The notes: generated by a model from the sequence alone, not told the origin. 64,000 nt of DNA from Squalus acanthias (GCA_030390025.1 CM059430.1:73842001-73906000), one strand, 5' to 3'. Numbered from the stretch's first letter, positions 2,191 to 33,583 are shown. Numbers and translations are program-made.

Positions 2191-2224
2191 AAATGCAGAC
2201 TGCAGCATTTGACACGTTGGATCC

Positions 2225-9800: not shown

Positions 9801-10121
9801 CCCCTTTGCTGGAGTGTCTAGAACTAGGGGCTTTGGTCTCAGGATTAGTAGTAGGCCATTTAAGACTGAAATGAGGAGGAACTTCTTCACTCAGAGGGTG
9901 ATGAATTTTTGGAATTCTCTGCCCAAGAGGGCTGTGATTGCTGAGTCTTTCGTTATATTCTAGGCTCAGATAGATAGATTTTTAGATTCAAGGAACATGG
10001 AAATCGGTCGGGAAAGTGGAGTTGATGTCCATGATCAGCCATGATCTCATTAAATGGTGGAACAGGCTCGAGGGGCCTTATGGCCTACGCCTGCTCTTAT
10101 TTCTTATGTTCTTATGTTCTT
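6806..10121 (+). mobile_element. Long decayed CR1 LINE (EN + RT), interrupted by a Penelope-type fold-back insert
   Basis: AIKETWL and GGGVAL endonuclease motifs, RT fragments and (ttcttatg)n tail. Confidence 0.9.
7623..7824. mobile_element. Penelope-type inverted terminal-repeat insertion with 13-bp TSD
   Basis: Inverted arms of ~70 bp; TSD catagtaaaggat (7610-7622) / catattaaaggat (7825-7837). Confidence 0.75.
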
Positions 10122-10530
10122 GATTGGCACCCCATCCACCACATTAAACATTCACTCCCTCCATCCGCGGTGTATCAAGGCTGCAGAGTGTACCCTCTAC
10201 AAGCTGCACTGCAGCAACTCGCCAAGGCTTCTTCAGCAGCACCTCCCAAACCCGCGACCTCTTCCAATTAGATGGACAAGGGCAGCAAGCACATGGGAAC
10301 ACCACCACCTCCAAGTTCCCCTCCAAGTCACTCACCATACTGACTTGGAAAAATATGGCGTTCCTTTATCGTCGCTGGGTTTAATTCCTGGAAATCCCTA
10401 GCTAATAGCACTGTGGGAGTACCTTCACCACACGGCCTTCAGCGGTTCAAGAAGGCTGCTCAAGGCCAATTAGAGATGGGCAATAAATGCTGGCCTTGCC
10501 AGTGATGCCCACATCCTGTGAATGAATACA
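10122..10530 (+). mobile_element. Family B LINE 3' end
   Basis: Shares the terminal gatgggcaataaatg(c/t)tggcctt sequence with the copy ending near 40640. Confidence 0.8.
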
Positions 10531-10669
10531 ATGTTTGGTAATAATTTCATGCAAAACATTGCGGATTCGGGTTGATGGAAAATAAATCATATTTATGTTG
10601 CAAACCTCCATTTATCTTGCAATCTCCGACCATTTCCTTCTATTCCACATATCCCCAATCCCCCAATTC

Positions 10670-10900
10670 CCTTCAAACCCAAAGTTCCACCTCTTCTGTA
10701 TCTACTAGCTGCACTTTGGAAACTTCATCCACAGACCTGTGGACAACATCCACTTGAACGCTGACAATAACCAGCTCTGCAACTTCACCCTGTCTTTTCA
10801 GCGCTCCACTGATGGAACATGTCGTATTGCTTGTCCACAACATCCATTCTTGCATGAATCGTAAATTTCTCCAGCTAAAGACCAATACACATTTAATGCT
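10670..10900 (+). mobile_element. Highly decayed L2-type RT relic
   Basis: Plus frame LFCIY*LHFGNFIHRPVDNIHLNADNNQL resembles the L2 RT segment around the YADD motif. Confidence 0.5.
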
Positions 10901-10944
10901 GTTGGTGTAGCTCAATTTGAGTTCCAAATTCTTCCAAGACATCT

Positions 10945-11167
10945 ATCTATCGCTGTATGATCGACTGAAAGAAATAGATCTTGGAGAGTAGCGCAACATG
11001 GACGCTCGGAAATCAGCAGGCCATTTCATATCCCACTCGAAATACTTAATCATTGAATTCAAATGGTTCGGTTTTAAATAAGTACCACTTAAGGATAAAT
11101 TCACCACTCCCCTTTTATGTTTATTGGTACAACACATTGAGGTAGATTTTCTTCTTCTCGGGCTGTG
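10945..11167 (-). pseudogene. Possible degenerate Ig V-like (CD2/SLAM-style) exon fragment
   Basis: Acceptor ttttcag|, then AQPEKKKIYLNV, a frameshift, then GVVNLSLSGTYL...IKYFEWDMK...ASMLRYS...FSRSYSDR*. Resembles strands A-D of a V domain; it runs into an L2 relic and has no DxGxYxC. Confidence 0.25.
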
Positions 11168-11749
11168 CTGAAAACGTCAGATTTTCATTCCAATGAATTC
11201 ATTAGAATGTATATAAGACGGGTTTTTATAAAGGTGCGATTCTCCCGGCCCGATTTTGCACCCTCCTGCACCTTCCGGCGATACTTAAGGCCCTCCGCCT
11301 CATTTATTTTTCCTTTTTCCATGGAAAATTAAATACATCGAGCACATTCCCACGATCCCTGATATGGATATGTTGATTATCTCGGTAAAAAAATACATGG
11401 CTGCATATCTCGGCAGCTCTTTGATTGAACGATGTATGCATTAATGCAGACATACATGAAAAAAATATAATAGCCCGGAATTTGCGTTCAGCTGGGAAGC
11501 AAAGTCATTCGCTGCTGGCCCAAAGAAAGCTGCCGACAGAGTTTTTCCGATCTCCGTGGCGAGAAGTTTGCCTCTGTCACATAATGGGGAAAAGCTCGAG
11601 TACTCAGTTCTGACGGCAAAGTGCTCTCTAAGCAGACAATCACATTGCAGAATTCTCACAGAGATCGAACCATGAAGTGAAGAAGGAGGTGTTCCTTTCT
11701 TTTTCCATCTTTGTTAGCTTCCAGGAGAGCCGGAGCTAAAAAGCTGCAC

Positions 11750-14700
11750 AAGAGGGGACAGAGAACCAGCGGTGAGTATTTCTACAGTATTTCTACATTC
11801 CAGTCATTAAAGTAAAAGGAAGGACTCTAGTTTAGAGTTGGTAGTGTTGAAAGGAAATTAATGACCCGAGTGTATTTAATATTCTTTAATTTAAAAGGAG
11901 TTAATTAAGGGTAGGACATGGTAGAGCAGCTCGGCAGCGTGGAGTGCTCCTCCTGTGCTACATTGGAAGTCAGGGACACTTTAGGTGTTCAGGGCGAACA
12001 CATGTGCAGAAAGTATCTCCAGCTGCAGCTACTCGAAATCCGCCTTTCGGAGCTGGTGCTGCGGCTGGAGTCACTGTGGATCATCCGTGAAGCTGAGATC
12101 TTCATGGATAGCACGTTTAACAAGGTGGTCACACCGCAGACAGGTAATGGGTGACCACCAGAGAGAATACAAGATCTAGGAAGGTAGTGCAGAAGTCCTC
12201 TGGGTCGATCTCACTCTCCGACATATTTTCCGTTTTGGATACTGATGGGGGAGATGGTTTCTCAGGGGAATGCAGCATGAGCCAAGTCCGTGACATTACG
12301 AGTTTCTCAGCTGCACAGGATGGGAGGAAAAAGACTGGCAGATTAAAAAGCAGGACTCAAAAGTTGTAATACCTGGATTACTCCCGATGCCGCGTGCGAG
12401 TGAGTATCGGAATAGGAGGATAGAGCAGATGAATGCGTGGCTACAGAGTTGGTGCAGGAGGGAGGGCTTTAGTTTCCTGGATCGCTGAGTCTGCTGCTTT
12501 TGAAGGTCGGACGTGTACAATTCAGACGGTTGCACCAGAACCGGAACGGGACCAACATCCTTGCTTGGAGGTTTGCTAATACTGTTGGGGGCGGAGGTGG
12601 GGGGCGGTGGTTAAACTAACTTGGCAGGGGGATGGGATACCGAGAGCAGCTCTAGTAGGGTGTGATGCACAGCCAAATATAGAGGAAAAAACAAGTCAGC
12701 CTGGACGGCAGAGCAAATATGTAACGGCACAAGGAAGTATGGCAAGGCTGGATGGCATTTATTTTTTATGCAAGGAGTCTTGCGAGTAAGGCAGATGAAT
12801 TGAAGGTACTGATGAACACATGGGAGTGTGATATTGTTGCTATCAGAGACACATGTTTGAGGGAGGGGCTGGACTAGCAGCTCAATATTCCGGGGTATAG
12901 ATTCTTCAGGCGAGACAGAGGTGGGTGGAAAAGAAGAGGGGGTGTCGCAATATTAATCAAGGAGTCAATTACTGCTGTAATGTGGGATGATATCTTAGCA
13001 GATTCATCTAATGAGTACATAGGGTACAACTTAAAAAGAAAAAGGGGGCAAGCACTTTGATGAGAGTGTACTATAGATCCCAAACTTTCACGGAGAGATA
13101 GAGGAATAGATAATAGGCAAATCTCCGAGAAGTGCAGAAATAATAGGGTAATAATAGTAGGTTATTTCAACTTCCCCAATATTAACTGGGGTAGTCAGAG
13201 TGTGAAAGGCTTAGAGGTTGCGGAATTCTTAAAGTGCATCCAGGAGAGCTTTTTGAGCCAGCATGTATAAAGTCCTGCAAGAGAGGGGCCAGTACTGGAC
13301 ATAATTTTAGGGAATGCAGTCGGGTAACTGGGAGAAGTGTTAGTTGGAGAGCATTTTGGTGACAGTGACCATAATTCGTTGAGATTTAAGGTAGTAATGG
13401 AAAAGGACAAAGATGGACCGGAAATAAAGGTTCTAAATTGGGGGAAGACCTATTTTAATATGAAAAGGCAGGATCTGGCAAAAGTGGACTGGGATCAGCT
13501 ACTTGTCGGAAAATCCACATTAGAGCAGTGGGAGTCCTTCAGAAAGGAAATAGAGAGATTACAACGGCAACATGTTCCCATAAAGGTCAAGGTGGGACCA
13601 ACAAGCCCAGGGAACCCTGGATGTTAAGGGATATGCGAGATTGGATTAGGAAAAAAAGGAAGGCTTTTGGCAGATACAAAGGACTAAAAACAGTGGAAGC
13701 CCGAGAGGAGTATAGAAAGTACAGGGGGTAATTAAAAAAGAAATTAGGAAAGCGAAGAGGGGGCATGAAATAACACTGGCGGGCAAAATAAACGAAAATC
13801 CCAAGGTGTTTTATAACTATATTAATGGCAAGACGATAACCAGGGTAAGAGTAGGGCCCATTAGGGACCAAAGTGGCAATCAGTGTTTAGAGCCAGAAAA
13901 TGTAGGTGGGGTTTAAAATGAATATTTTGCATCTGTGTTCACTATGGAGAGGACGATGTCGGCATCGAAATCAGATAGGGGGATTCTGATATACATGAAC
14001 AAATTAGTGCTGAGAGGGAGGAGGTACTAGCGGTTTTAGCGGGCTTAAAAGTGGATAAATCCCCAGGGCCTGACGAGATGTATCCCACGCTGCTGTGTGA
14101 GGCAAGGGAGGAGATTGCAGGGGCTCTGACACAAATTTTCAGAACCTCTCTGGACACAGGTGAGGTAACAGAAGACTGGAGAACAGCTAACGTCGCACCA
14201 TTATTCAGGAAGGGTAGTGGGGATAAACCAGGGAATTACAGGCCAGTGAGCCTAACATCAGTGATAGGGAAATTATTGGAAAAAATTCTGAGGGACAGAA
14301 TTAGTCTCCACTTGGAGAGGCAAGGATTAATCAAGGATAGTCAGCATGGATTTGTCAGGGGGAGATCATGTCTGACCAATTTGATTTAATTTTTCGAGGT
14401 GATGAATAGATGTGTGGATGAGGGTAGTGCAGTTGATGTGGTCTACATGGACTTCAGTAAGGCTTTTGACAAAGTCCCGCATGCGAAACTGGTCAAGTAG
14501 GTAAGAGACCATGTGATCCAGGGCAACTTGGCACATTGGATCCAAAATTGGCTTCGTGGCAGGAGGCAGAGCGTGATGGTCGAAGGTTGCTTTTGTGACT
14601 GGAAGCCTCTGTCCAGTGGTGTACTGCAGGGTTCAGTGCTGTGTCCTTTGCTGTTTGTAGTGTACATTCATGATTTAGATATGAATGTAGGAGGTATGAT

Positions 14701-15640
14701 AAGTAAGTTCGCAGATGACACGGAAATTTTTGGGGTGATAAATAGCGAGCAGGCTAACCTCAGTCTGCAGGACGATATAGGCTGGTCGGTCAGATGGGCA
14801 GAACAGTGGCAAATGGGATTTAACCCAGAAAAGTGTGAGGTGATGCATTTTGGGAGGATTAAAAAGGCAAGGGAATACACAATGAATGGTAGGACCCTAG
14901 GAAGGACAGAGGATCAGAGGGACCTGGGTGTGCTTGTACATAAATCCCTGAAGGCAGCTGGACAGGTAGATAAGGTGGTTAAAAAGGCATATGGAATAAT
15001 TGCCTTCATTAGCCGAGGCATAGAATATAAGAGCAGGGATATTCCGATGGAGCTGTGCAAAACGCTAGTTATGCCACAGCTGGAATACTGTGTGTAGTTC
15101 TGGTCGCCACATAATAGGAAGAATGTGCTTGCATTGGAGAGGGTGCAGAGGACATTCACCAGGATGTTACCTGGGCTGCAGCGCTTCAGCTATAAAGAGA
15201 AACTGGACAGGCTGCGGTTGTTTTCCTTAGAGCAGAGAAGGTTGAGAGGGGACCTGATTGATGCTTACAAAATTATGAGGGGCAAAACTAGGGTAAATAA
15301 AAAGGAACTTTTCCCCTTAGTACATGGGTCAATAACCAGGGGGCATAATTTCAAGTTACGTGGCAGGAGGTTTAGAGGGGTTTTGAGGAAAAACTTTTTC
15401 ACCAAGAGGGTGGTTGGAATCTGGAACTCACTGCCTGAAAGGGTGGTGGAGGCAGGAACCCTCACAATATTCAAGAAGCATTTAAATGAGCACTTGAAAC
15501 GCCGTAGCATACAAGGCTACGGACCAAGTGCTGGAAAATGGGATTAGAATAGACAGGGCTTGATGGCCGGTGTGGACACGATGGGCCGAAGGGCCTCTTT
15601 CTGTGCTGTATAACTCTTTGAGTCTATGACTCTATGACTC
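11750..15640 (+). mobile_element. Near full-length decayed CR1 LINE (ORF1 zinc-knuckle/coiled-coil plus ORF2 EN-RT)
   Basis: ORF1 VECSSC...HMCRKYLQLQLLEIRLSEL; ORF2 GDSDHN, KSPGPD and KFADDT; (gactctat)n tail. Confidence 0.9.
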
Positions 15641-16810
15641 CATGCTTTTATTCTGACTTTTAAAAATTGTTACAGACAGCAAAACATTCGGGCTTCCCAT
15701 GGGGTAAGGTTAAACCTGAAATAAATATGGACAACCGTTTAAAAATGTATATATTTTTAAATGTTCTTAAAAATTATATTTGTTATCATAATGGGGAAAT
15801 TTGTCACTCCACAAAATTAAGATTAGTTTTTCAGGTTCTTATTTTGTTGAGGTATCAGTACACTGTAATACCCCAGTTACACCTAATCCATCAAGACCTA
15901 ATTTTTAGTGGGGTATTTAACAGTGATATTATCGTGGAAAAGCGCAAATTTTCGTCAGTTTAACTGATATCACTGATTAAATTGATTGGCGGCTATAGCG
16001 GTATAGCGCAGCCAGTGTCGGAGCAGTGAATGACTGACCGCAATGTCAGGATTTCCGTTTAGATTCGCAGTCAGTTTCAACAAGACAATAACAGCGAACA
16101 CTGTTAGTTCCGCGTTACTATCCAACGCAAAATCCGGCCCTATATTAAATTTCGATTTCTAGATACTTCATGAAAAGGAAATCTATGAGAACAAGTCTAC
16201 ATAATGCAGTTATAATTTTGGATTGGTGTTCCGGTAGACTCCACTGAAACAACCTGGGTAACTACAAATTTATCCCAGCTGTACAGGATGCGACTCTGCT
16301 AATGAAGTAACTGCAGATGGAGTGCACAATTCAATCACGTTTACCGATCCGTTTTCGATTCTAATGGAAAACACTTTTGCTTCATCAAAGACTTTAAATT
16401 TCATGATCGATTTATTGAAGCAATTCAATAACAAGACATAGAAGAATACTGTTCAAACAGCTGCAGGACGCTTTATCAAGGCTCAATAACAAGGAAAAAG
16501 ATTGGCAAATTACTCAAGTAAAATATTTAACATAATAAACTTTTTTAACTTTAATCCGGAAATTTTTTCATGAATCAAAGTATAACGTTTGGCAATATTT
16601 CAGAAAGGAGCTGGAGAACTTTTGAATGACTCGCTTCGTTCCAGTGTCCACAGCAGAGTAGCGGAGATATTTTATCAACGGGAACAGCGTGGCGCCTTAC
16701 AACTATCTCCTTCACCGATTATCAAATTTTTCTGAACCACTGCTACAGGAAATGTAAAAAAAGAGTTCTCTCTTTCCCTCGACTGACGCTCTCGATGATC
16801 AGCGACTTGC

Positions 16811-17002
16811 TCAGCAGTAGATTCTCTTGTCACATTTATTTGTTATATGACTGTTCCTCCCGACCACCCTTTTCTGGTTTTTGAACTGAACCTGCCCGTA
16901 CACTATGGTCTCCTCTTGCCGTTTCGGTTTTGTATATGTCTTCTGACCGACGAAATCTAGCGCACAGGAAGTCAGCCTTTCATCAGCTACCATTTGCGGA
17001 AT
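16811..17002 (-). CDS. Cytoplasmic terminal exon B with ITIM IVYGQV (IPQMVADERLTSCALDFVGQKTYTKPKRQEETIVYGQVQFKNQ...RIYC*)
   Basis: Acceptor ttctacag| (phase 0), in frame with the exon A donor. ITIM at 16889-16906, stop at 16811-16813, minus-strand AATAAA at 16411-16416. Aligns without gaps to exon A. Confidence 0.62.
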   Translation of the reverse strand: MPQMVADERLTSCALDFVGQKTYTKPKRQEETIVYGQVQFKNQKRVVGRNSHITNKCDKRIYC

Positions 17003-17410
17003 CTGTAGAACAGTTCAGAAATAGCGTTAATATTCTGTCTTCATAAGCCTGCGGATTCCTACCTCAAACAAACTCGGATATTACTGCATAGGATGAGGCA
17101 AATGCGACATGCGAGAACCTACCACAACTTCTCTCACCATCCTGAAGCGACTCAAGCATACCCTGCTGCACCTCAAACCTGAGCCACGTTACCACATTCA
17201 CCTGAACATACATGGGGATATATGTTATGTATAGCCGATTATGATAGTGAAATAACAACATAAACTTCAGCCATAAATTTTCGTGTAAGTATGAAACTGT
17301 TTCCAGCAGCAGAAGTATCGCTAAACAGATTTAAGGTAATTGGCAAAAGAGCCAGAGTTGAGATAAGGAGATTTTTTTTAACACAGTAAGTTATTATGAT
17401 CTGGAATATA

Positions 17411-18043
17411 TTGGCCCATATTGTCTGATCGCAGGTCTCCCGCGGGCGGAGGCCTGCGATCTGGATGAATCTGAGCCCTTACCTGAGGGCTCCCCGGACG
17501 CGCACAGTTCCGATGCTGGGACTCACCAAATTCCAAGAGCGCAGGGCCCACGTATGCCAGAGGCGCATGTGGTTCGCAGCGTCACTGGGATCACGTGGGC
17601 CATGGGGAACCAATCACGTAAGGGAATCTCCCTCCATACATTTGACCTGTCAAATATATGAATGAAGATCAATGAAAAAACATGGTAAAATTAAAAAAAA
17701 TATATTTTTAAATCACTTTCTTAAAAGTAATTGAAATTACAATAAATTAAGTTTAAAATAAAGTATTTTAAAAACTGCTTTTCTTCTCTTATCCTGGTAA
17801 AAGCAGGCCTTACACCTGCTTTTCCCAGGCGGAAGAATTGTAAGTGTTTTCTGCGGGCGGAGGGTCTCCAAAAAGCGGAACTATCCGCCCGCAGATGCCC
17901 TTCTCCAGGGCAGCCGGAGGGTCTGTCAAGAGGATTCTTGACAGAGCGCATGCGTTGTGCGTGCCTGAAAGCTGCATTTGCGATGTCCTACGGGTGGGTG
18001 CACAGTGTGTAGCCACACGGAGTGCTCGGAATATCCGGCCCAT
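17411..18043 (+). mobile_element. Non-autonomous TIR element (MITE family) inserted in a CR1 3' fragment
   Basis: Imperfect TIRs, GC-rich arms and AT-rich core; clear similarity to 32252-32985. CR1 sequence resumes on both sides. Confidence 0.7.
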
Positions 18044-18671
18044 TGTCTGAAGCAGTGGTGGAAGCAGATTCGACAGTACATTTCAAAAGGAAATTAGCTA
18101 TGCGCTTGAAAAGGAAAATGCTATCAGGGTTATGGAGAAAGTGAAAGGGAGTTTGAATAATTTGATAGCTTTCCAAAGAGATGGCACAGGTACGATAGGT
18201 CGAAAAATTCTTCTGTGTTGAAAGATTCTATGACTCTATGATATGCCTGTTAACAAGGAGCACATGCAAAGTCTAACATAAGTGTAATGCTCGAATGCAA
18301 TACCAGTGTGAGACAGCAAATAAGTTTAAGGGGATATTTAATAACGGCTTTCAAGATCATAAAGTGTTGTGTTGCAGTAAATAAGGAGACTTTCTTTCCA
18401 ATCAGAGAATAATTGGTAACAGGTGGACACAGATATGAAGTAATTCTCAAAAGAGTCGAAGTTGAGATGATGAAAAAAATGTTATGCAGCAACTTATTAT
18501 GAACTGGAATGCACTGCCTGAAAGAGTAGTGGAAAGAGATTCACTAGTAACTTTAAAAACGAATTTTAGTAAATATTTATTTTGAGAAAATTTCAGGACT
18601 GTGGGGAAACAGCAGAGGAGTGAGACTGGTTACATAGCATTTACAAAGAGCCGACCCAGGTGGGAAGGACC

Positions 18672-21600
18672 AAATAAGAACACAGGAAATAGGAGCAGGG
18701 GTAGGCCATTCGGCCCCTCGAGCATCCTCCACCATTCAATAAGATCATGATTGATCTGATCTTGGCCTCAACTGCAAATTCCTGCCTGCTCCCATAACCC
18801 TTGACTCCACCGTTTCCCAAATATCTGTCTATCTCCGTCTTAAATATATTCAAAGACTTAGCCTCCACAGCTCTCTGGGGTAGAACATTCCAAAGATTCA
18901 CGACCTCTGAGAGTAGAAATTCATCTTCATCTCCGTTTTAAATGGGCGAACCTTTTTCTGAAACTATGCCCCTCGTTCTAGATTCCTCCACGAGGGGAAA
19001 CTTTCTCACAGCATGCAACCTGCCATGCCCCCTCAGGTTCTTATATGTTTCAATAAGATTATCTCATTCATCTAAATTCGAATGAGTATAGGCCTAACCT
19101 GCTCAACCTTTCCTCATAAGACAACCATATCAACTCAGGAATCACAGCAGTGTACCTTCTCTGAACTGTCTCCAATGCAAGTATATCCTTCCTTGAATAA
19201 GGAGACCAAAACTATATGTAGTACTCCAGGTGTGGTCTCACCAACACCTTGTACAAGTGCAGCAAGAATGTCCTACTTTTATACTCCGTCCCCCTTGCAA
19301 TAAAGGCAAACATTCCAATTGCCTTCCCAATTATTTGCTGTACCGGCATGCTAACTTTTTGTGTTTCATGTACGAGGACACCCATATCCCTCTGTACCGC
19401 AGCATTCTGTAGTCTCTCACCGTTAAAATAATATTTTGATTTTTATTCTTCCTACCAAAGTGGATAACCTCACATTTTCCCACAATACACTACATCTGCC
19501 AGATTTTTGCCCACTCACTTAACCTATCTATATCCCTTTGCTGATTATTTGTGTTCTCCTAATAACTTGCTTTCCCACCTATCTTTGAATAATCAGTAAA
19601 ATTGGCAACAGTGCGCTCGGTCCATTCATCCATGTCATTAATATATTTGTAAATAGTTAAGACCCCAGCACTGATCCCTGTGGTACATCACTAGTTACAG
19701 TTTGCCGAACAGAAATTGACCCATTTATCCCGACACTCTGCTTTCTGTTAGTTGGCCATTGCTCTATCCATTTAAATATATTACCCCCATTACCGTGAGC
19801 CCTTATCTTGTGCAGTTGCATTTTATGTGACACCTTATCGAAAGCCTTCTGGAAATCCAAATACACTACATCTACTGGTTCCCCTGTATCCCCTCCTGCT
19901 CGTTACATCCTCAAAGAACTCTAGTACGTTTGGCAAAAAAGATTTTCCTTTTATAAAACCATTTGACTCTACTTGATTGTATTATGATTTTCTAAATGTA
20001 CTGCTACTACTTCCATAATAATGGATTCCATCATTTTCCCAAAGACAGATGTGAGGCTTACTGGCCCATAGTTTCCTGCGTTCTGTCGCCCTCCTTTCTT
20101 GAATAGAGGCGTTACATTTGCGGTTGTTCAATCCGTTGGGACCTTTCCAGAATCCAGGGAATTTTGGTAGATTACAACCAATGCATCCACTGTCTCTGCA
20201 GCCACTTTGTTTAAGAACCTAGGATGCAGGCCAGCCGGTCCAGGGATCTTGTCAGACTTTATTCCCATTAGTTTGACTAGTACTTTTTCACTAGTGTTAG
20301 TGATTGTTTTAAGTTCCTCCTTCACTTTTTCCCCTTGATTATCTACTATTATTGGTATGCTTTTAGTGTCTTCTACTGTGAAGACAGATACAAAATATAT
20401 GTTCAATATCTCTACCATTTCCCTGTTTCCAATTATAAATTCCCCAGTCTCATGCTCTAAGGGACCAACGTTTACTTTAGCTACTCTCTTAATTTTATAT
20501 ACCTGCAGAAGCGCTAACTGTCTGTTTTTATAATTCTTGCTAGTTTACTCTCTTAATCTATCTTCATCCTCTTTATTTTTTTTTAGTCATCCTTCGCAGG
20601 TTTCTAAAGATTTCCCAATCCTCTGGCCTACCACTAATCGTTGCAACATTGTATGCCTTTTCTTTCAATTTGATACCATTCTTAACTTTCTTAGTAAGCC
20701 ACGGCTGGTTCATCCTTCTCGTAGATTCTTTCCTTCTCACTGGAATATACCTTTGCTGAGAGTTATGAAATATGCGCTCAAATGAGTGCCACTGCTTATC
20801 TACCGTCTACACTTTAACATATTTCCCAGTCCATTTTCGCCAACACTCATCATACCTTTGTAATTGCCTTTATTTTAGTTTACGACACTATTTTCAGACC
20901 CAAGTTTCTCACCCTCAAACTGAAAGGGAAATTCTATAATGCTAAGATCACTCTTCCCTAGAGTATCCTTTACTATCTGATAATTAATTAATCCTGCCTC
21001 ATTGCACATTAGCAGATCTAAAATAACCTGCTACCTGGTTGTTTCCCCTCCAAAAAGTGTTGTTCTAAGAAACCATCCTGAATACACTCTATGAACTCGT
21101 ACTCAAGTCTAGCTTTGCCAATTTGATAGCCTATATGCAGATTGAAATCGCCCATGAATTTGCAGTACCTTTCTTACAAGCCCCCATTATTTCTTGATTT
21201 ATATACTGCCCTATTGTGTAGCTAATGCTAGGGGACCTATAGAGTATTCCCAGCAGTGGCTTCTTTCCCTTACTATTGCTTATTTACACCCAAACTGCTT
21301 CTCCAACTTGATCTTCCGAGCCAATATAATTTGTCACTAATGTACTGGTGTCATCATTTATTAACAGAGCTATCCCACTTCCTTTTCCTTGCTGTCTATT
21401 CTTCCCAAATGTTAAATACCCCTGAATATTTAGTTCCCAGCTTAGGTCTCCTTGCAACCACGTTTCTGTAATGGCTTTCAGATCATACCCATTTATATAT
21501 ATTTGTGCCCTCAATTCATCTATCTTTTTACGAATGCTGCGCGCATTCAGATAAAGAACCTTTAATGTTTTACCATTTCCCCCCTACTCTTAACCGATTT

Positions 21601-21790
21601 GCCAGTGCAGTCTTATGTTTGTACATTCTGTCCATTCCTCTCAGACTCTGGTTATCATTACCCCCATTCACTATCCTGCATTATTATCTCGTCCTTTCTC
21701 TTTAACTTGCTAAAGTTCCCCCACCAGAATCCTCCCCCTACTATTTGGTACAAAGCCTGTCTACAGCCCTAGTTATTCGACGAATGGTCT
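18672..21790 (-). mobile_element. Decayed CR1 LINE (EN-RT)
   Basis: AITETWL, YLDFQKAFDKV and VPQGSVLG on the minus strand; 3' tail near 18675. Confidence 0.9.
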
Positions 21791-23306
21791 CCTTCTGTTC
21801 TGTTAGTTTAAATGATTCTATGTAATTATGTGATAAGTCTGTTGAAGACCACATGAAGAATCTAACTGAAGTATATGTCGCGTATGCCATACCAGTGTGC
21901 AATAGCGGATCTTGACAGCTGTTTCAGCAGTGGAATTTTTTACACATTTGGATTGATTTAATTCATTGCGCCCAGCGATTGCTTTATGAACGAACACTAT
22001 ACGGTTAGCGGTAGGGAAGAAATCTCATTTAGCTCAAAATTGCGATCAAGCTGTGCTTCACACGGAGACCTGGGAGTGTGAACATATCAGGCTTTTTCTC
22101 TCATTGGTGCCGAAGTCAACATTCTCAAATCGGCATTAATAAGGCAATAATAGCCTCAAAATGGAGTTGGCAGTCTTACCGCCCTTATAAACAGACTGGC
22201 TGGACAGAGCTCCTGTGTACTTAGGTGCTAGATCCTTTTAAGATGCAAATCGTAGTCGTATAACGTACAGAGGACCCTTATTGCCATTTTAGGAACTAAC
22301 AGTGTGGAGCTTGTGCCCTGCACTCGCCAACCACGTTTACTGGCTAAACGGCAAATGTTTCTCCAAAAAGGACGGATTGCTCTTCCTGGGTCTATAAAAA
22401 ACAATCTATGACGCTGATCCTCAACTTTCCGCTTCAGAATCGCAACCTCCACTCCAGGACTTACATTGCTGCGATGGGTATTTTCCGCCTACCTCTCTGA
22501 TAATACACCATCCTGAATCCGGTCTAAATGCATCGACATGTCTCTCTAGGGCGAGCAAAGCGCCGTTTCTATTAAAATGAAGCCAAAGCATTAAAATGGC
22601 TCCGGGTTTTTTCCTGCCGGTTTGGGCCGTCCGCTGACACAAAGGTTAAAGATTACCCCAAAGAGTGCACGAACGAATATACAGTAAATTGGTGTTGGAA
22701 ACAGTTGGAGAAGGCAATGGGTGACTTTTGTCTAAGTGCACGCCTGTCAGTTCAGTGTTTAAGAGTCGCAAAATTATGTTAGACACACATCGGGGCAAAG
22801 GTAATTTAGTATTTTATCTTAACCATAGGTAAAATCTAAATCTCACTGTGAATATGCTAGCCTATTCCGTCATTATTTTACAAAAATATAACCGGTTGTA
22901 GTTTTCCAATTGGCTTAATCACCGTAATTGCTGATCAGTCCACATTTTGGAATATGAGAGAGATGGTGTTTGGACACACGAACGATAACAGAATCGATGG
23001 GGGTGAAAGATGCAAAACGGTTGAAGTGTTACGATGTAATTGCGTTGTGCCGCAATACGAATTTCACGCTTTTATTCTAAAACAACGGGGAATAAATTGG
23101 TCTGGGGTGTACTCTTACTGTACAAGAATAGCAGTCTGTTACAACTAAGTAAATCATTATATACGTTGCAGATTCGGCGGCTACAAGCAATGCAGGAAAA
23201 AAATACTTCAACCACACATTGGTTTAAAAATATCTGAAATTGTGTTACATATATATGGTATATATGCATGAAATATTGTTACATTTAGGTATGGAATTAT
23301 CAATAC

Positions 23307-23417
23307 CTCCGCGTGCACTTCGTTCGTTTTCATCTGCTTGGGGTTTGAACGCTTCTTGGGGTCAGTAAACTTCACAGTTGCATAGGTGAGTTGTTCATCT
23401 GTGACGCCTTCCTGAAC
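23307..23417 (-). CDS. Cytoplasmic exon A with ITIM LTYATV (VQEGVTDEQLTYATVKFTDPKKRSNPKQMKTNEVHAE)
   Basis: ITIM consensus at 23373-23390. Acceptor ttgcag| is phase 0; alternative phase-1 AG acceptors give exon starts at 23425 or 23428. The exon either uses donor GAG|gtattg or reads through to a stop at 23208 with AATAAA at 23071-23076. The exact link to the TM exon is uncertain (candidate micro-exons 23691-23719 and 23503-23515). Confidence 0.7.
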
Positions 23418-24189
23418 CTGCAACTCTACTTGCACAACGTTCATTATATTATAGGACAGATTGAGATCGGTTGTAGAATTTAAATTGAATCGTGATACTT
23501 ACCGGGGTTCCATTTCTAAAATTCAATAGTGTTTAATTAATTGCTGAGCATAAATCGTTTTTATATATATTTCTACTTTGATACTCTCACATCGATGTAA
23601 GTTACACTTTTTCTCAATGCAGAATTGCTAATGACTGCCAACTAGAATGTTATATTTGTATTGGTAGCATAATTTAATTAAAAAATGCACCTCTCTCCGT
23701 AGTGCCCGTATGTCGTTGACTACTCATTAAAAGGTCACGTTAACTCGCTCCCATTTCGGTGCATTATTCGTCTTATTATGAAAAAAACAGTAGAAATTTT
23801 ACTCTTTTGGACTGCTTCATGTAGATTATTTTCTCTGTCGCGAATTTCATTTTCAACGGTATAACAGGAGGATTATACATCCGCACATGAAAACCGTCAT
23901 TGGCCTCCCTGATTCTGTAACCTTCTCCAACGTTGCAGCCTCTGAGAACTCTGTCTTTCTCCAACTCTGATTTATTTTGCATCCCGTATTCATTTACCAC
24001 ATGGCTGACATCTGTGCCTTTAGCCCATTAACCCTAACCTCTGGAATTCAGTGATTGATCAATCGGTTTCTACACCACCCTTTGCTCCTTTAAAACTATC
24101 CTTGAACCCGCCTCTTTGATCAAGGTACTGGGAAGCTCTCTCCTTAACGCCAACATTTGCACCATGTCAATTCTTGACTGGCTAAGCGA

Positions 24190-26040
24190 ATTGAATCATA
24201 GAAACAAAGATTCATGCAGCACAGGATGACGCCAGTCTGTCCATCGTGCCGGCTCTTTGGTAGATCTATTCATTTAGTTCTACTCCCACCCTCTTTCCCA
24301 ATAGCCCTGTTATATTTTCCCCTTCAACTGTTTGTCCAATTCCCTTTTGAAAGTTTCTGTTGAATTTGATTTCAACACCCTTTCAGTCAGTAGATTCCAA
24401 ATCACAACAACTCGCTTGTTTCCTCATGGCGCCTCTGTTTCATTTGCATATCACCATAAATCTATGCACTCTGATTACCGACCCTTACGCCACTTAAACA
24501 GTTTCTGCTTATTTACTGTATCAAAACCATTCCTGAAAGTGCAAAGCTCTATCAAACCTCCTCTTAATCTTCTCTGCTTCAAGGAGAACAAACAGGCTTG
24601 CGCAGCCTCTCTAAGGCCTTCATAGCCTTGCTAAAGTGTACTGCCCAGAATTGAACACAATACTCAGGCTGAGGCCTAAGCAGTGTTTCTTACAACTTCC
24701 TTGCTTTTGTACTCTATGCCTTCTCAACTTATGTTGGCACCTTCAACTATTTGTCTACAAGCACGCTAGGTCTCCATGCTCCTGTAAACATTTAAAATGT
24801 ATGATTTATTGTAAACTGCCTCTCCGCATTCTTTGTACCAAGATGTATCACTTCACACTTCTCTGCATGAAATTTCAGCTGCCATGTTTCTGCCCATTTT
24901 AATACCCTTCTTATCTCCTCACGAAATCGGTTACTATTATTATGTTTATTTGTTACATTTCGGAGCTTCCTGTCATGTGCAAACTAAGAAATTATGGCAT
25001 ATTTTCGATGTTCAAGGCCATTTATATATGTCAAAAAAGCAGTTGTCCTTAATACCGACCACTGGGGAACACCATTTTATTCTTCTCTCTGCAACACTAT
25101 CCTCTGCATGCTGTCCCTTGGCCAGTTTCGTATCCATATTGCCATTGTCCCTTAAATTACATGGGCGTTAAATGTGCTAACAAGTCTAATATGTGTTAGT
25201 TTGTCAAATGCCTTTTGGAAGTTAATATACACAACATCAACCACACAACCCTCATCAACGCTTTCTATCACTTCAACAAAGAAGTCGATAGAACTCGTTA
25301 AAAACGATTTCCCTTTAACAAATCCGTGATGATTTTTATTAGCCAATATATTTTTCAATGCCAATTCAGTTCGTCCGGGATTGCACTCTCTAAAAGTTTC
25401 CCCACCATAGATATTAGGCTAACTGACCTGTAATATCAGGGTTTATAACTCTCCCCTTTTTTAGGCAGCTGTGTAACGTTTGCAATCCTCCTGTACTCTG
25501 GCATCGCCTCACTTCGAAGGAGAATTTGGCGATATTGGCCAAAGCCTTGGCAATTTCCACCCTGACTAGAATGTCTATCATCCGGAGTCCGTGAATTTTC
25601 TACTTTGAGGACTGGCCCCCGTTTAAGTATCTTCTGTTTATGTATTTTAATCCTCCTCAATATCGCTGCTACTTTATCCGTTCGTGCTACATTGCAGCAT
25701 TCTATTCTCCAGTGAAGAGACGGTAAATTTCTAATTTTATAACTCAGTCATGCCCTCTGCCTGCAGAGGAATTTTTCCTTTTGGCTCCTCATCGGTCTCA
25801 CCCTTCTGCTGACTTACCTATTACTACTGATATATTTATAAACTGCATTTGTGTTCACTTTTAATTCAGCCGCTAATCTATTCACATTGCCTGTTTTTTA
25901 GATCTCCTCTGCCCTCATCAACCCTTTCCGTTTCTTCAACAAAAAACTCAGTCAAGTTAATCGGATACGATTTGCCTTAAAGAAATCAGTGCTGACTTTC
26001 GTTTATTAGCCCATACTTTTCAAAAAGCCAATGAAGCTTC
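24190..26040 (-). mobile_element. Old, heavily decayed CR1 LINE fragments
   Basis: HHGFVKGKS and VYINFQKAFDKL remnants. Confidence 0.75.
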
Positions 26041-27209
26041 CTGATATGTCTTTTCTTCATCAAACGAATTACATCAATTCAAATTGCTGCTGCACGCTTG
26101 GGCTGCATCTTGAAATGATTCCGAGGAAAATGTTGGCTTGGTGAAGCCGAACGATTGAGGAATGGTTTAACATGAAGCCAGAATAGATTACCTAGAGATA
26201 CAGTGGAGGCCATAATTGTCAGCAATTCCGAAAAGAAGACGGATAGTTTTCCTCGTAAGTTGTCTTGACGCATTACCCTGATTTCCGCCATTGTTCTCCT
26301 GATCTCTAGCGGCAATTTTGGAAGGAATCTGCTCGAATCCCACAGAAATAGACTAGTTAGTTAAAACCCGCGATTGACGCGTTTTTTTCTGGGGAATTTG
26401 CCAATCTTGCACTGAACGTACAGGGCATGGGTAATATATCGAAGTATTTCAGGGTCTACAGGGACATGGTCAACCGAGGAACAGCAAGAACTACCGAGCA
26501 CAGGGCTGCAGCTGCTCGAGATTACTAAACACCCATTAAGGGACAGAAATATTATTTTTCCCCACAACAAGTTCAGGGCACTTGAGTCCACTCAGGTGCT
26601 GAATTATGGCTGACTCCTTCAGCGCGAGATCTATTGAACACCTGAGGGAATGGCGTAAAGGGCAAGGAGCAGCTGTTAACTCAGATTCTCAAGTTCTTGA
26701 ACAAAAGGAAGCATAATCTAGCAGCAATTCTCCCCCCAAGTAGCTCTCAGTTTGTAATCGAGAGTTGTTCGTCTTTTAAGGGCGATTAGAAAATTGGGAG
26801 GAGAAATTCGAATGAGTTCTCCCGACACTCCACAAAATAATTGCAGCACCTCCCAAGGAAAATAGCATAAACAGCAATTTTGAGTCAGTAATGCTCTTTC
26901 TCTGTTTGTTGATTCAGATGCCCACTAAAGTTACGTCGAGGGACTGGCATGATTTCCATGAAATTTCATAGCCCATCTGTCCAAAGTGAGTTACAGTAAA
27001 ACATTCCGCTGAATGTATCTCCTTCTCCAAAAGCCACATTAGCCGAATGCATAAATTGTCTGATTTACAGAAGAATCAGCAACTTTTCTTTAACCTGATC
27101 GAAGCTGTTTATCTTCTCAGGTGCAACTTTTTTCTTCTGTTTATTGCTGATTTAATATTTTGCAGATGCAACAAATCATGATTACAATAAAGAAGATTTG
27201 AATTCTTAC

Positions 27210-27323
27210 CTCTTAATCTAGGCAATTTAAATAGTTTCAATATAGTGACCACCGATAGTAGAATTAACAGTCCAATTCCGAGACAGAGAAACATGTACAA
27301 GAGTGGAAAGCCACTGTCGATAT
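27210..27323 (-). CDS. Exon 4: transmembrane exon (DIDSGFPLLYMFLCLGIGLLILLSVVTILKLFKLPRLR)
   Basis: Acceptor tattttgcag|, donor G|gtaaga, 114 nt, phase 1-1. An uncharged hydrophobic stretch of ~23 aa is followed by basic residues. Confidence 0.82.
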
Positions 27324-27534
27324 CTGCAAAATAAACAGAACTGTCACTCAAAACCTAACCGATCAGTAACAATTATTGTATTAATGATACACGACTTGGA
27401 TAATGAAAACTCTTACTCTGATTTGAAAGGAAATGTAAGATTTATACCGCAATAAAATATATTAAACCTAACTGTCCGCGGGGTTGTCCCTCGATCACGC
27501 CATAAGAAAAGCAGGAGGCCATTGCAACCCCCAC

Positions 27535-28940
27535 AGAAATGATAGAGTCTTAGAAATTTACAGCACAGAAGGAGGCCATTCGACCCATCTGGTCCGTGGC
27601 GGCCGACAAAGAGCTATCCAGCCTAATCCCACTTTCCAGCACTTTGTCCTTAGAATTGTATTTTACAGCACTTCTAGTGCATATCAAAGTAATTTATAAA
27701 TGTGATGAAGGTTTCTGACTCTACCACCCTTTCAGGCAGTGAGTTCCAGATCCCCTCCATTCTCAGGGTGAAGGCATTTCTCCTGGAATCCCATCTAAAC
27801 CTCCTACCAATTACTTTAAATCTATATTCTCTGGTTGTCGTTCCCTCTGCTAAGGGAAATAGGTCCTTCCTATACATTGTATGCCTGCCCCCATAATTTT
27901 ATACACCTCAATTAGGTCTCCCCTCAGCCTCCTCTGTTCCAAAGAATACAACCCCAGCCTATCCAATCTTTCCTCATATCTAACATTCCCCAGCCCAGAC
28001 AACATCCTCGTAAATCTCCTCTGCACCCTCTTTGGTGCAATCACATCCTTCCTGGAATTTGGTGACCAGAACTGCACGCAGTATTCTAGCTGCGGCCTAA
28101 CTAGTGGTTTATACAGTTCAAGCATAATCTCCCTGCTCTTATATCCAAAGCCTCGCATTATAAAGGTAATTATTCCGTATGCCTTCTTAACCACATTATC
28201 TACCTGACCTGCTAACTTTCAGGTATCGGTGGACATGCACTCGACATGCACTCTGAACCTCTGCACTTCTCATCCTCCTACCATTTATTGTGTATTGCCT
28301 TGCCTTGTCAGTCCTCCCCAAATGCATTACCTCACACTTCTCCGGATTGAATTCCATTTGCCAATGTTCTGCCCACTTGACCAGTCCATTGATATCTTAC
28401 TGCAGTCTACAGCTTTCTTCTTCATTATCAACCACACAGCCAATTTTTGTACCATCTGCAAACATCTTAATCATGCTTCCTCCATTCAAGTCCAAATCAT
28501 TGATATTTACCACAAAAATCAAAGGACCCTCTACGGAGCCCTGTAGCACACAAATACAAACAGCCTTCCAGTCACAAAAACATCCTTCGACCATTATCCT
28601 TTGTTTCCTGCCAATTTGCCTTGGATCCCATGGGCTTTTACTTCCGTGACCAGTCTGCAATGCGGGACCTTCTCAAAAGCCTTGTTAAAATTCGTATAGA
28701 CTACATCAAACGTACAACCCTCATCGACCCTCCTTGTTACCTCCTCAAAACATGTAACCATGTTAGCCAGATACGATCTTCCCTTAACAAATCCATGCTG
28801 ACTGTCCCTGATTAATCCATTCCTAAGAAATGTTTCCAATAATTTTTCCACCACCGAGGTTAGACTGACTGGCCTTTAATTACTCGTTCTATTCCTTTGT
28901 CCCTTTTTAATGAACGGTAACACGTTAGCAATCATGCAGT
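27535..28940 (-). mobile_element. CR1 LINE 3' portion
   Basis: DSQHGFVKGRS and LVRPQLEYCVQFWSP motifs. Confidence 0.88.
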
Positions 28941-31429
28941 CCGGCAGAAATGGCAGCATCCGAAGAAAAAATAGTTTAGATGTCCATTTTTTATTCTCTA
29001 CATTATTTGTCTAAAGTTTCTTTGATCTCAAGTCCGAACTGATGGTACATTACAGTGGAGCACAATGAAATTGCAGTTTCATGATCTCTCCACAACCTGT
29101 GTCAATTTTCTTTGTATGAATGTTTCTCTCGCTCTCTCTGCTATTCTACTTGTGTGTCCTTTTATATCCCATTTTGTTGTCTGTCCTTAAGATACTTTAG
29201 CTCTCTCTCGGCACTCTTCTGCATCCTTCTCTGCATATATGCTCTATCACTTGCTGTCGAATGTGATGGGTGGCACAGTGTGTTTTGAACGAGAAAATTG
29301 TTAACTAGTGTAAGAAGGGTGCACTTTGGATGACTTTACATGGACACTCTGGCCCTTACTGGCTCCTTTCCCAGCCTCAAAACTATTATTCATCCCCACA
29401 CATTTTTCTGCTCTAGCTTCTCCCAAGTGTTCGTTTTTCAACCGAAACCTTCCCTTTATATCACTCCTCACTCAGATCCACACTGCCCTGCCTCTTCCTT
29501 ATTGAAATATCCACTCAGCCCCTAAGTAATCCTGTCCACTTGCTCCTATTACATGTAACCTGACATGCTTTTCAGCTGTTCTGCACTCCAATTTAATCCT
29601 CCAGGCTATTGGGTGAGTTGTCTAAGGCAACCTTAAACATTGCTGGTTTCCTGCCTCCTACTATTGTAATTCCTTTCTATTCCTTTCCTTAGATGATGCT
29701 GTATTTAGTTTGAAAAGTTAAAATACTTTTAAAATAACCCATTCAGCATAAACGAAGTCAAAAAATGTCAGCTCGCCCTATCTATATCTCTGGCCCTAAT
29801 TTTGAATTTTATCTCTGTGCGAAACATGGGCGATTGCGAATCGGTCGACCGTTTTCACCTCAATCGATTTTGTGCTGATTTGCTATCACCCATTTTTAGC
29901 TGTGCGAGTAGATATAAAATTACCCACTCTCTCTCTGATGTCGCACATGTTAGTATGTAGAAATTCTGTCGTACCTCTGTGAGAAATTAGCATTTACACT
30001 TTGTAAATGTCACGCAAACATAATTCACAGTTAGCATTAGTGTGACTCGAAATTCAAAATTTATTCTTGTGAAAATGAAATTCATATTAACCTGACTAAT
30101 GACTCTCTTCTGTCCCTTGGTTGTAGCTCTCTCTCCTGTGTACCTTTCTCTTTCTCAATCTCTGACATAAGCCTTTCTCTCTCATGCTCTGTTCCTCATT
30201 ATAATACACTTTCAAAACATAATGGACCATTTTAAACCAAACAATAATAACGTTGTTTAATATTTTTTGTAATATCCCACTTCTCTCTCTCGCTCGCTCA
30301 CACACATATAAACACACGCATGGTCGAATCAAGTCAATCGCTTTTTAAACACTGAATATAAACTTTTCAATAATGAATATTCCAACGTTTTTCCTTTTTC
30401 TGGATGAATCAACAACTGATTAAATGCTGCAGAAAGACAGCACTCGCTCAGAAAGCATGACCTAAAGTCAGCTCAGAGAGCGACAGTTCATGGCAAAATA
30501 TCAATTCAAATCTTTTTTTTCTGTGACTGGCTGAAGATTTCAAGTAATAGCTTAATGAAGGCAATCAGAGATGGAAAGGCAACTCATTTAATACTTCTCA
30601 TCATGCTTTAGTGAAATATCTGATTTTGAACTTGAATATTGTATAATCCGTTAATTTGACTTTAGATATTTAATTCGCTGCACTACAAATTGAAGATCAA
30701 AATTTTAATCTTAAAAAACTGAGAGATAAATTTCGGTGATTGCTCGGGAAAGCTATTTCCTCACCAGATCGTGCCATTACAACGTCAGGTTTAAAAAGTA
30801 ATTGTGTACAGCTTATTCCATTCGTCCGCCATAACTTCGGCGGAAGAGCCGTGAAATTCAGTATTTCGTGGATTTCCTCGGCAATTCCCACGAAGATATG
30901 AACGTACGAGTGGTTGAGCCCGGCTGAAACTCATGTCAGTATAAATGTGCAGCGAGCATCGCGTAATGTTAAACGGTTACAAAAATATGACATCAATAAG
31001 AAAGGTTTTTTTGAGACAGGAAGTGAACAGACATGAGCGGCGTTGATATCCTCGGGAGCTGCCCCAGCCACCGCATCAACCGCTCTTACATCGGTGGGTA
31101 ATTAGTTTAATCCGGGGAGAAACTCATAACCAGCCTTTTTCAGCCCTTTTCATCCGCCTTTGCCCAAAATGTTCCACTGATCTCCCACCGATGTTTGGAC
31201 ACCAGATCATTACAATCTCTCATAAATCCCTGGTGAACACTTTTAGTTAATATATTCATATAAACGGCTGAAGTCACTGAACAATTAAATGTTGAACAGT
31301 TGGTTACCGATGACTGTTCGTCAGAACTTCTAATTCCGTGAAGTGATTCATTTTTATCGTTGCTATTTGTATCAGTGACGCTGAAATACATCAGGCGACT
31401 GACGGTGTAATCCCATGTCCTTAACTGAA

Positions 31430-32195
31430 TGGCACAGAAATTCGGATTTCCCGCTTCCTGCGGGTGCAAGCATCGCGCGCGTACTTGCCCACCGCACCTA
31501 CAGTTGTGCTTTGGGCCCACCAGGACTTCGGGTCCTCGGGCTCCTCCAGCTGCCGGCGCACAGTGCTTGTGTATCCCAGGGGCGCAGTTAGTTCGAAGCG
31601 TCCCCTGGGGTCATGTGGGCCATGGAGAGCCAATCCGAGCAGGGCATTTTCATTCATAGATTTGACAGTAAGACCTGTTAAAATCTATGAATAGAGTTCG
31701 GCCCCAAAACCACACTTAAACCTCAAAAAATAATTTTTTAAATCACATTTTTAATATAACGTTAAGATGAATAAATTAAGTACTTTAAACAATAGTTTAA
31801 ATTTTTGAAAAAATTAATTATACTTTTTAACGGTGCTAAAAATAAACCTACATTTTTTAAAAGTATCTAAAAAAGATAAAGCTGTTGAAAATTTGTCTTA
31901 ATTGTAATTAATTAACCGCTTACCTTGTTAAAAACAGATCTTGCGCTTCCTTTTTAAAAGCGCAGCTTCTTCATACTCACCCTCCCGGAGGAACCTGAAA
32001 AAAAAACTGAAGTTCGCTGCATGCGCGCACCTCTCCCCTGCACGTGGTTCACCTCTGAACCCCTCCCTTCAGGGTAACGGAAGTTCCGGTTTCCCGCACA
32101 TGCGCAGTGCATGCAGGAATCCGGCACTTCCGATGTAGTTGCGAGTGAGCACACAGCTCGTACTCACCCGACAACAGCCGATATTCTGGCCCAAT
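31430..32195 (+). mobile_element. MITE family copy
   Basis: Ends tggcacagaaattcgg / ccgatattctggccca; homologous in reverse orientation to 60335-61089. Confidence 0.7.
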
Positions 32196-32251
32196 ATATT
32201 TAAAATGGAATTGTTTATAAACGGCCACATTTGTGACTGCGCAGAATAATA

Positions 32252-32985
32252 ATGGCCCGTATTTTCTGATCGCAGGCCTCCTTCGGGCGGAGGCCTGTGA
32301 TCTGGGAAAATCTGCGCCATTACCTGAGGGCTCCGGGACGCGTAGAATTCCGATGCTGGGCCTCTCCAAACTCCAAGTGCGCAGTGCCCACGAATCCCAG
32401 AGATGCATGTCGTTCGCAGCATCCCTGGGATCACGTGGGCCATGGGGAGCCAATCACAGAAGGGAATCTCTCTTCATACATTTGACAGTAAGACCTGTCA
32501 TATATATGATGGCTATCAATAAAAAAACATAGTAAAATTTTAAAATATTTTTTTTTAAATCATATTTTTAAAATGACTTGAAATTACAATAAATTCATTG
32601 AAAAAAATCATTTAAGTATTTTACGGGCCTAAAAATAAACTTACCTTTTTTAAAATTATTTTTCAGTGATAAATCAATGAAATTTTGTTTTTAAATTTCA
32701 ACTCTTGTCCTGGTAAAAGCTGGCCTTACGCCTGCTTTTGCCAGGTGTAAGAATTCTAAGGGTTTTCTGCGGTCGGAGGGTCTCCAAAAAGTGGAACTAA
32801 CAGCTCGCAGAGGCCCTTCTTAAGGGCAGCCGGAGGATCTGTCAAGATCAGAAATGCCGGTCTTCAGCGCATGCGCTGTGCATGCCTGAAACCGGCATTT
32901 CCGATGTCCCTACGGGGTGGGGGGGGGGGGGGGGGGGGTGTGCACAGCGCGTACCCACCCGCAGGGATCGGAATATCCCGCCCAA
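32252..32985 (+). mobile_element. MITE family copy with an internal poly-G tract
   Basis: Ends tggcccgtatttt / gaatatcccgccca; homologous to 17411-18043. Confidence 0.7.
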
Positions 32986-33583
32986 TGTTACAATCAGTCT
33001 TTTATTACGATATTCCAGCCATGCTACCAAAACGTGTGCAGATAATATATACTCTCTAAAAATCAATTTGATTGAAATGCTCTAATTCTGGGCATGGTGT
33101 ATCTACAATTAAGCTAATAAATGTTTCTATGGAAGAGAAACGTCTTCCTCATTTCGCAATATAATGAAAATAATGTAAACAAATACATCTATTACCACCC
33201 CTGTAGAACGATGCGCATGCATAGCTGTCCCGTTCTTCTGCTTTAACTTCTTCGGACGATCGCGTAAACATCGCAGAAATCGCATAAACCGCCATAGGCA
33301 TTCCAGCCTGACTTTTGCAGGACGAGTGCGGGCCTTTGGTGAGAGACAATAAAGCAGGATTCCTTCTTCTAATAACTGGAAAATGTCCTTGCTGTAAACT
33401 GCAGGGTGTGGATCATCTTTTACGTGTGGGGAATTGTCTCCTGAAATTCTTAAGGCTCGCACATGCTGACTGGAAACTCACACAGAACACACTGGGGCCG
33501 GCCGTCCATGGAGACGGATCTCAGCAGAATCAAAATTTTCAGCAAAGACTGAGAAAAACCCGAAAAACAAGCATGCCAATTAC

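Follow-up and report, generated by a model that had tools for sequence, protein, structure and literature searches.

In a stretch of 64,000 nucleotides from Squalus acanthias (GCA_030390025.1 CM059430.1:73842001-73906000; hereafter the window, with positions counted from its first letter), two related cytoplasmic exons, A and B, lie between positions 23417 and 16811 and keep different tyrosines of a pair of ITIMs (immunoreceptor tyrosine-based inhibitory motifs). The locus raises the question of whether the two exons share out a common task. A preliminary description of the region took them for a duplicated two-ITIM exon whose copies had undergone subfunctionalisation by complementary tyrosine loss, with alternative tails as the outcome. 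We consider it probable that the transmembrane exon, A and B are instead spliced in series into a 372-residue inhibitory receptor, that A and B are old copies of one module, and that a tyrosine was replaced by His in A early and by Ser in B later, leaving an eroded redundant tail rather than a division of labour.

Two homologous modules at the end of one receptor gene

As read from the sequence, A and B are the final exons of a minus-strand gene with leader, V, C1 and transmembrane exons, SIRP-like by its NCBI family label and a member of a cartilaginous-fish family. When the six exons (leader, V, C1, transmembrane, A taken from 23425, and B) are joined, they give a 372-amino-acid frame without a stop and with GT-AG ends throughout. 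The features of the gene are as follows.

41187-41253, minus strand: leader exon; ATG at 41253, phase-1 donor; located by tblastn of horn-shark XP_067905014.1 (P0011) and splice sites
40684-41004, minus strand: V exon; Pfam V-set 4.4e-11; germline-joined J-like end; Gly replaces the B-strand Cys
33584-33889, minus strand: C1-set exon; Pfam C1-set 1.9e-08; 59% identity to XP_067905014.1
27210-27323, minus strand: transmembrane exon; 114 nt, phase-1 donor
23503-23515, minus strand: 13-nt micro-exon-like element; strong donor (8/9); shifts the frame if included alone
23307-23425, minus strand: tail module A; acceptor in phase 1 (23425) and donor in phase 0 (after 23307); ITIM LTYATV
23384-23382 and 23315-23313, minus strand: Tyr codon and His codon of A
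23208-23306, minus strand: A read-through, beyond the donor; open over 32 codons, then a stop; possible alternative last exon
23280-23297, minus strand: ITIM consensus IPYLNV in the A read-through; its Tyr is 31 residues after the proximal Tyr of A
23243-23263, minus strand: B-like stretch in the A read-through; 17/21 nt shared with B 16848-16828, at the corresponding place of the gap-free alignment
23071-23076, minus strand: AATAAA after the read-through stop, at a distance of 132 nt
18660-21790 (approximate limits), minus strand: decayed long interspersed nuclear element (LINE), from repeat families; RVT_1 match at 19660-19902 (E 3.2e-06, under the curated cut-off)
16811-17002, minus strand: tail module B, the last coding exon; ITIM IVYGQV; stop at 16813-16811
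16969-16967 and 16900-16898, minus strand: Ser codon at the proximal site of B and Tyr codon of B
16411-16416, minus strand: first AATAAA beyond the B stop; a further AATAAA at 16840-16835 within the coding part and ATTAAA at 16555

The intron between A and B measures 6304 nt, about half of which is taken up by the decayed LINE. The window holds a single leader, V, C1 and transmembrane exon, and tblastn with the retrieved family proteins detected no trace of an ectodomain in the interval from A to B; no other gene was found within the 64-kb window. The minus-strand reading of A from 23417, as first described, holds, but the acceptor placed there does not. The transmembrane donor is in phase 1 and a start at 23417 is out of frame with it, whereas the TAG acceptor 8 nt upstream, which sets the exon start at 23425, gives an open frame from the transmembrane exon into A.

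Comparison of the two exons indicates that A and B are homologous and descended from one two-tyrosine module. Their ungapped alignment, as first described, proved significant: 11 of 41 amino acids and 61 of 123 nucleotides are identical, and the BLOSUM62 score of 48 was reached by none of 20000 fixed-register shuffles (identity of 11 was reached by 4 of 20000). Likewise, no shuffle equalled the local score of 53 (0/5000) or the DNA identity (0/20000). The identical bases number 21, 23 and 17 of 41 at the three codon positions. This likeness is ordinary for the family, where modules 1 and 2 share 7-14 of 34-37 residues in all 11 multi-module proteins, compared with 10/37 for A and B.

We took the ITIM consensus as [I/L/V/S]xYxx[L/V]. 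The complementary site pattern is present as first described: A has Tyr (TAT, 23384) at the proximal and His (CAC, 23315) at the distal site, and B has Ser (TCC, 16969) and Tyr (TAC, 16900), respectively. Since the A donor (after 23307) and the B acceptor (before 17002) are both in phase 0, A and B join in frame and, as had been proposed, rebuild a two-ITIM tail, with LTYATV and IVYGQV conforming to the consensus and their tyrosines 60 residues apart. The main product is likely this weakened tail with two widely spaced ITIMs.

The horn-shark orthologue and the probable order of the losses

The closest relative among the best 150 of 438 matches of the C1 search, from which we drew the family, is XP_067905014.1 from Heterodontus francisci, an NCBI model labelled 'tyrosine-protein phosphatase non-receptor type substrate 1-like'. 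It resembles the window gene in having leader, C1, transmembrane, A and B parts in the same order (137/252 residues identical), His at the distal site of A and 23 residues from the transmembrane segment to the first Tyr. Unlike the window gene, it has Tyr at the proximal site of B and thus keeps both B tyrosines, lacks a V domain in the model, has Ala in place of Gly at distal position +1, and ends 8 residues earlier. Its tyrosines are 36 and 23 residues apart, as opposed to 60 in the A+B tail of the window gene. B and the C1 domain are equally conserved between the two species, with 59% identity each (B over 54 amino acids). Where B continues for 8 residues past the horn-shark stop (window 16848-16811, minus strand), an AATAAA lies at the matching place inside its coding part.

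As the horn-shark protein has A followed by B and already carries His in A, the duplication and the His would predate the split of the two lineages. The Ser in B is likely a later loss in the Squalus lineage, because the horn shark keeps Tyr there and the proximal site is Tyr in 40/40 family modules. Moreover, the horn shark has His in A together with both tyrosines in B, so B would have been kept there without any complementary loss. The claim of complementary loss as coupled subfunctionalisation is not borne out, the two losses falling on different branches; judged from these sequences, neither the timing nor, as discussed below, the frame agrees with subfunctionalisation.

The family points to what the ancestral unit was like. 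Starting from 99 proteins shorter than 530 amino acids, we retained 87 with a C1 match, 76 after removing 11 cluster mates or isoforms, 51 with a transmembrane segment and 26 with modules. By sequence, the tails of the family are tandem tyrosine modules of about 37 residues, one to three per tail; in 13 of the 14 pairs of neighbouring modules, the spacing is 36-39 residues. Among the last-found modules, 21 of 26 have the distal Tyr; one has a clear His (P0079) and four rows look cut or misregistered. The idea of an ancestral unit with both tyrosines is thus supported by the family modules. A hidden Markov model (HMM) of the module, seeded without the window sequences, gave 19.2 bits to A and 33.8 bits to B. 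In the module tree (27 rows, 37 columns, with 15 single-module rows left out), just two of the 24 inner branches were starred: the one joining A to module 1 of the horn shark (99/96) and the one joining B to its module 2 (96/87). The rest was mostly unresolved. In a weak part of the tree, A fell with later-type and B with first-type paralogue modules (66/76), which is opposite to the A-then-B arrangement of the gene.

Isoform X3 of a horn-shark paralogue (P0161 compared with P0160) lacks exactly one 37-residue module that ends at distal Tyr+2. Since precisely this module is skipped, the exon border is fixed at distal Tyr+2, in agreement with the position of the A donor; isoform P0162 probably skips a module as well. 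In internal modules, distal position +3 is Thr or Asn in 8 of 14 cases.

We propose that a tyrosine module of about 37 codons was copied whole as the last exon and that, in the upstream copy, the GT of the distal +3 Val codon was turned into a donor; splicing would then cut the distal motif of A after position +2. The proposal is supported by the A intron, which retains a 17/21-nt match to the 3' part of B. The distal Tyr of A would have changed to His before the split from the horn-shark lineage, leaving three tyrosine motifs spaced by 36 and 23 residues. Later, in the Squalus lineage or in this allele alone, the proximal Tyr of B would have changed to Ser, which removed the 23-residue pair best suited to tandem SH2 domains. 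An eroded tail is in line with the lost B-strand Cys of the V domain and with the missing V in the horn-shark model.

The expected consequences for signalling follow from better-known receptors. In PD-1 and BTLA, the tyrosines of the ITIM and of the immunoreceptor tyrosine-based switch motif are about 23-25 residues apart, a pair resembling one intact module, and the 25-residue spacing goes with bivalent phosphatase binding (PMC8631942). The activation of SHP2 depends on linker length (PMC10231330), and Gly at +1 inhibits SHP1 recruitment (PMC8631942). In contrast to PD-1 and BTLA, the window gene has no intact pair in either module, and its spacings of 60 residues in A+B and 31 in the A read-through depart from about 25, whereas horn-shark B has 23. 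By analogy, we infer an inhibitory function with recruitment of SHP-1 and SHP-2, which the receptor would still achieve, only more weakly, because the 23-residue pair is lost and Gly stands at distal +1.

The locus appears mostly ordinary: with a single lineage-specific tyrosine loss, it adds to a shark receptor family that is expanded and annotated in databases but has received little study. It may be of modest value for comparative immunology, since a 37-codon module with a donor in the Val codon of its distal motif would be a simple rule for lengthening tails, one that would also account for the often imperfect internal distal motifs. We found no paper on the tail modules of the shark V-C1-transmembrane family in the literature searched, which leaves most subscription papers outside.

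Splicing of the tail and competing explanations

Several observations weigh against the reconstruction of a serially spliced, eroded tail. The A donor matches only 5/9 of the U1 consensus and is the weakest in the gene (the others match 7-8); an equal or closer match is seen at 1399 of the 3316 GT sites on the minus strand. The A acceptor is also weak, with 6/17 pyrimidines. Furthermore, 13 of the 14 internal modules, all except horn-shark A, have retained the distal Tyr, so cutting the distal motif does not generally free this Tyr from constraint. The HMM, for which modules carrying Tyr had served as the seed, failed to detect some first modules, although B with its Ser scored well. The effects on SHP binding are transferred from human receptors. 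Only one orthologue was found, a predicted gene model which may be incomplete because it lacks a V domain, and two taxa, with the family as outgroup, order the tyrosine losses by parsimony only. A protein search with an alignment that had A misplaced over B returned 11 matches among 2274 candidates with XP_067905014.1 as the only orthologue; a search with the tail of XP_067905014.1 found only itself among 2 candidates, and a C1 search against longer proteins found nothing among 49. Finally, the read-through of A, with its IPYLNV motif and the retained 3' match, keeps a possible A-terminal isoform alive, albeit as an observation made after the fact.

Beyond the donor of A, the frame remains open over 32 codons; the same holds for 31120 of 127141 windows of that length, and the ITIM consensus occurs in 1252 of the 31120 open windows. 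IPYLNV conforms to this consensus together with LTYATV. The 17/21-nt match between the A intron and the 3' part of B falls exactly on the alignment diagonal, at a distance of 154 nt from the start of the exon. It was reached by none of 5000 shuffles and by none of 3000 dinucleotide shuffles in each direction, and by 7 and 3 of 126533 window offsets. At the matching place, AATAAA is present in B and not in A. On this evidence, the stretch in the read-through is a remnant of the 3' end of B. As the read-through contains both IPYLNV and this remnant, an A-terminal isoform with an A-only tail is possible.

The strongest competitor takes A as a composite exon, whose weak donor is often skipped so that transcripts end by way of the AATAAA at 23076. 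The A-terminal tail, with LTYATV and IPYLNV 31 residues apart, would then be strong and A+B weak, which is compatible with the history proposed above. The weak donor, the open read-through, the ITIM consensus within it and the diagonal match to B speak for it, as do P0063, which appears to continue past its first module with Val, and the Leu at +1, which permits SHP1 binding (PMC8631942). However, the reading is a post hoc one, the 21-mer that matches is rich in A and T, an AATAAA as close as that of A occurs at 13% of positions, and IPYLNV has no counterpart in B or, by protein models, in the orthologue. We regard this explanation as unlikely, yet worth keeping in view. More speculative again is the idea that last-exon copying, with the GT of the ITIM Val codon converted to a splice donor, lengthens shark inhibitory tails while A works both ways, the read-through having acquired a new second ITIM (IPYLNV) at a near-optimal distance out of what was once 3' sequence and A+B having been weakened, so that intronic polyadenylation would switch between a strong and a weak tail. 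If true, the read-through isoform would carry an ITIM born from former non-coding sequence.

The polyadenylation signals themselves decide little. The preliminary description gave each exon its own stop and downstream AATAAA. Stops and signals exist, but the signals are weak: the AATAAA of A lies 132 nt past its stop, and such a signal follows at 140 nt or less for 13% of positions on the minus strand; the nearest AATAAA of B lies inside its coding part (16840) and the next 395 nt past its stop, with 33.5% of minus-strand positions having one within 400 nt. These sites are weak evidence for separate 3' ends. A search for RNA data sets containing 33450-34050 listed none. When contigs from three RNA runs (one study, of a presumed kind) were aligned to 15600-34100 with 80% likeness, repeats dominated the outcome, and these results speak neither for nor against expression. 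The contigs joined exon ends in 0 of the 15 joints listed (97 more not shown), gave next to no cover in the bins 23004-23620 and 16217-16833, and included one contig that is unspliced on 16927-17075, with 9 differing letters at positions not shown, in which the Ser codon of B is unreadable.

Another explanation holds that the gene is decaying, or that the changes are private to a haplotype or to the assembly, with the Ser in B and the lost V Cys reflecting relaxed selection on a tail without tuned function. B lacks a proximal Tyr that no family module lacks, and the V domain has Gly in its B-strand where 25/25 aligned family V domains have Cys, so that the canonical B-F disulfide, a typical but not diagnostic feature, is absent. 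The missing V of the horn-shark model and the Gly at +1 where the horn shark has Ala point the same way. On the other hand, 372 codons without stop or frameshift and canonical ends at all splice sites speak against decay, and the V domain is still predicted to fold (mean predicted local distance difference test score, pLDDT, 86.5, from a model that leans on family rows). We hold decay or a private change to be improbable.

The original proposal, that the duplicate exon was kept since each copy lost a different tyrosine and that splicing chooses among A-only, B-only and A+B, draws on the site pattern in this genome and on the module skipping annotated in P0161 and probably in P0162. Annotated isoforms of a paralogue do leave out one module, whereas a B-only tail through the B acceptor would be out of frame here. 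Splicing of the transmembrane exon to that acceptor reaches a stop 6 residues into B, without an ITIM. From the frames, an in-frame B-only tail would be possible only through a cryptic TAG 16 nt inside B, which would restore the frame, or through an unseen spacer exon. Under strict rules, a search for a spacer exon leading from phase 1 to phase 0, its donor matching at least 7/9, found none; a loose search gave 8 candidates with 6/9 donors, and 7 candidates (6-7/9) able to pair with the 13-nt element. The paralogues with module skipping have a longer spacer before the first Tyr, which spans 26-37 residues in 16/16 others, compared with 23 in the window gene and XP_067905014.1. Together with the horn-shark B, which keeps both tyrosines, these results make complementary loss very hard to credit.

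That B is a relic last exon not spliced to this gene, with A terminal in all messages, we can practically set aside, since the loss of an otherwise invariant Tyr and the pairing of B with first-type and A with later-type modules in the weak tree part stand against an intact acceptor and open frame, 59% identity to horn-shark module 2 and the clean interval between A and B.

Two minor elements lie upstream of A. The 13-nt element at 23515-23503 sits 85 nt before 23417 and may be a relic of a spacer exon or a poison exon. A SVTYIDV-like stretch near 23610-23590 was considered as an extra exon; it is in frame only via weak (6/9) splice sites and was taken as a chance occurrence.

Relation to known receptors and surroundings of the gene

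The window gene belongs, by the type of its C1 domain, its modular tail and the joined G-x-G end of its V domain, to the cartilaginous-fish SIRP-like V-C1-transmembrane family. Nine of ten C1 relatives checked are, or cluster with, cartilaginous-fish PTPNS1-like (SIRP-like) or tapasin-related-like models, and one clusters with an NCR3LG1-like model; the window C1 is 40-55% identical to many family members in addition to its closer match to the horn shark. V-C1-transmembrane models of these three kinds from Callorhinchus, Heptranchias, Heterodontus and Mobula share a joined J-like V end, one C1 domain, a transmembrane segment and a modular tail with the window gene. In most of the cartilaginous-fish models, unlike in the window gene, a spacer precedes module 1, the V domain has its B-strand Cys, and all proximal sites are Tyr.

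SIRP-alpha binds CD47 and carries four tyrosines in its tail. Its V-C1-C1 ectodomain, with two C1 domains, differs from the window gene, which has one C1 exon. The two share a C1-set domain (2wng 1.2e-08; profile 1.5e-29) and ITIM-type tyrosine motifs, although antibody chains and UrIg2 score as high as SIRP-alpha or higher in the C1 structure and profile comparisons. Mammalian SIRP-alpha also has a joined VJ-type V domain (PMC11599192). The window gene is predicted to be a SIRP-type ITIM receptor in its mode of action; its single C1 does not fit the V-C1-C1 design of a true SIRP-alpha orthologue.

Shark UrIg2 provides the best C1 match among solved structures (9dmx, 3.1e-17) and shares the non-rearranging VJ-C1 design; VJ-C1 genes are treated in PMC10751288 and PMC11599192. 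UrIg2 has nine C1 domains, and the main text of its description does not use the word ITIM (PMC12227049). With several C1 domains after VJ in UrIg and UrIg2 as opposed to one here, the window gene is not UrIg2.

The V domain (41004-40684, minus strand) lacks the family Gln at position 11 and has an extra Cys in its G-x-G end. Shark VNAR domains are the nearest match to its predicted fold, with a TM-score of about 0.8 at 20-24% identity. Skipping of V in the window gene would keep the frame; the horn-shark model has no V.

The surroundings are rich in repeats. Decayed LINE copies in both orientations occupy 1-15600, 18660-21790, 24200-29000 and 42300-58100, with reverse-transcriptase and endonuclease matches at 14501-15094 and 3631-4218. 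The I1 arms at 83-742 and 43591-44250 are 91% complementary. A GC-rich interspersed repeat, recognised by eye through alike translations and sequence, recurs at about 17420-18060, 31430-32980, 37830-38140 and 60830-61150. The V-C1 intron contains a GIY-YIG-like frame at 36245-36778 on the plus strand (Pfam E 6.6e-4, below the cut-off), which presumably stems from a Penelope-like element, and an N run, an assembly gap, at about 38680-38920.

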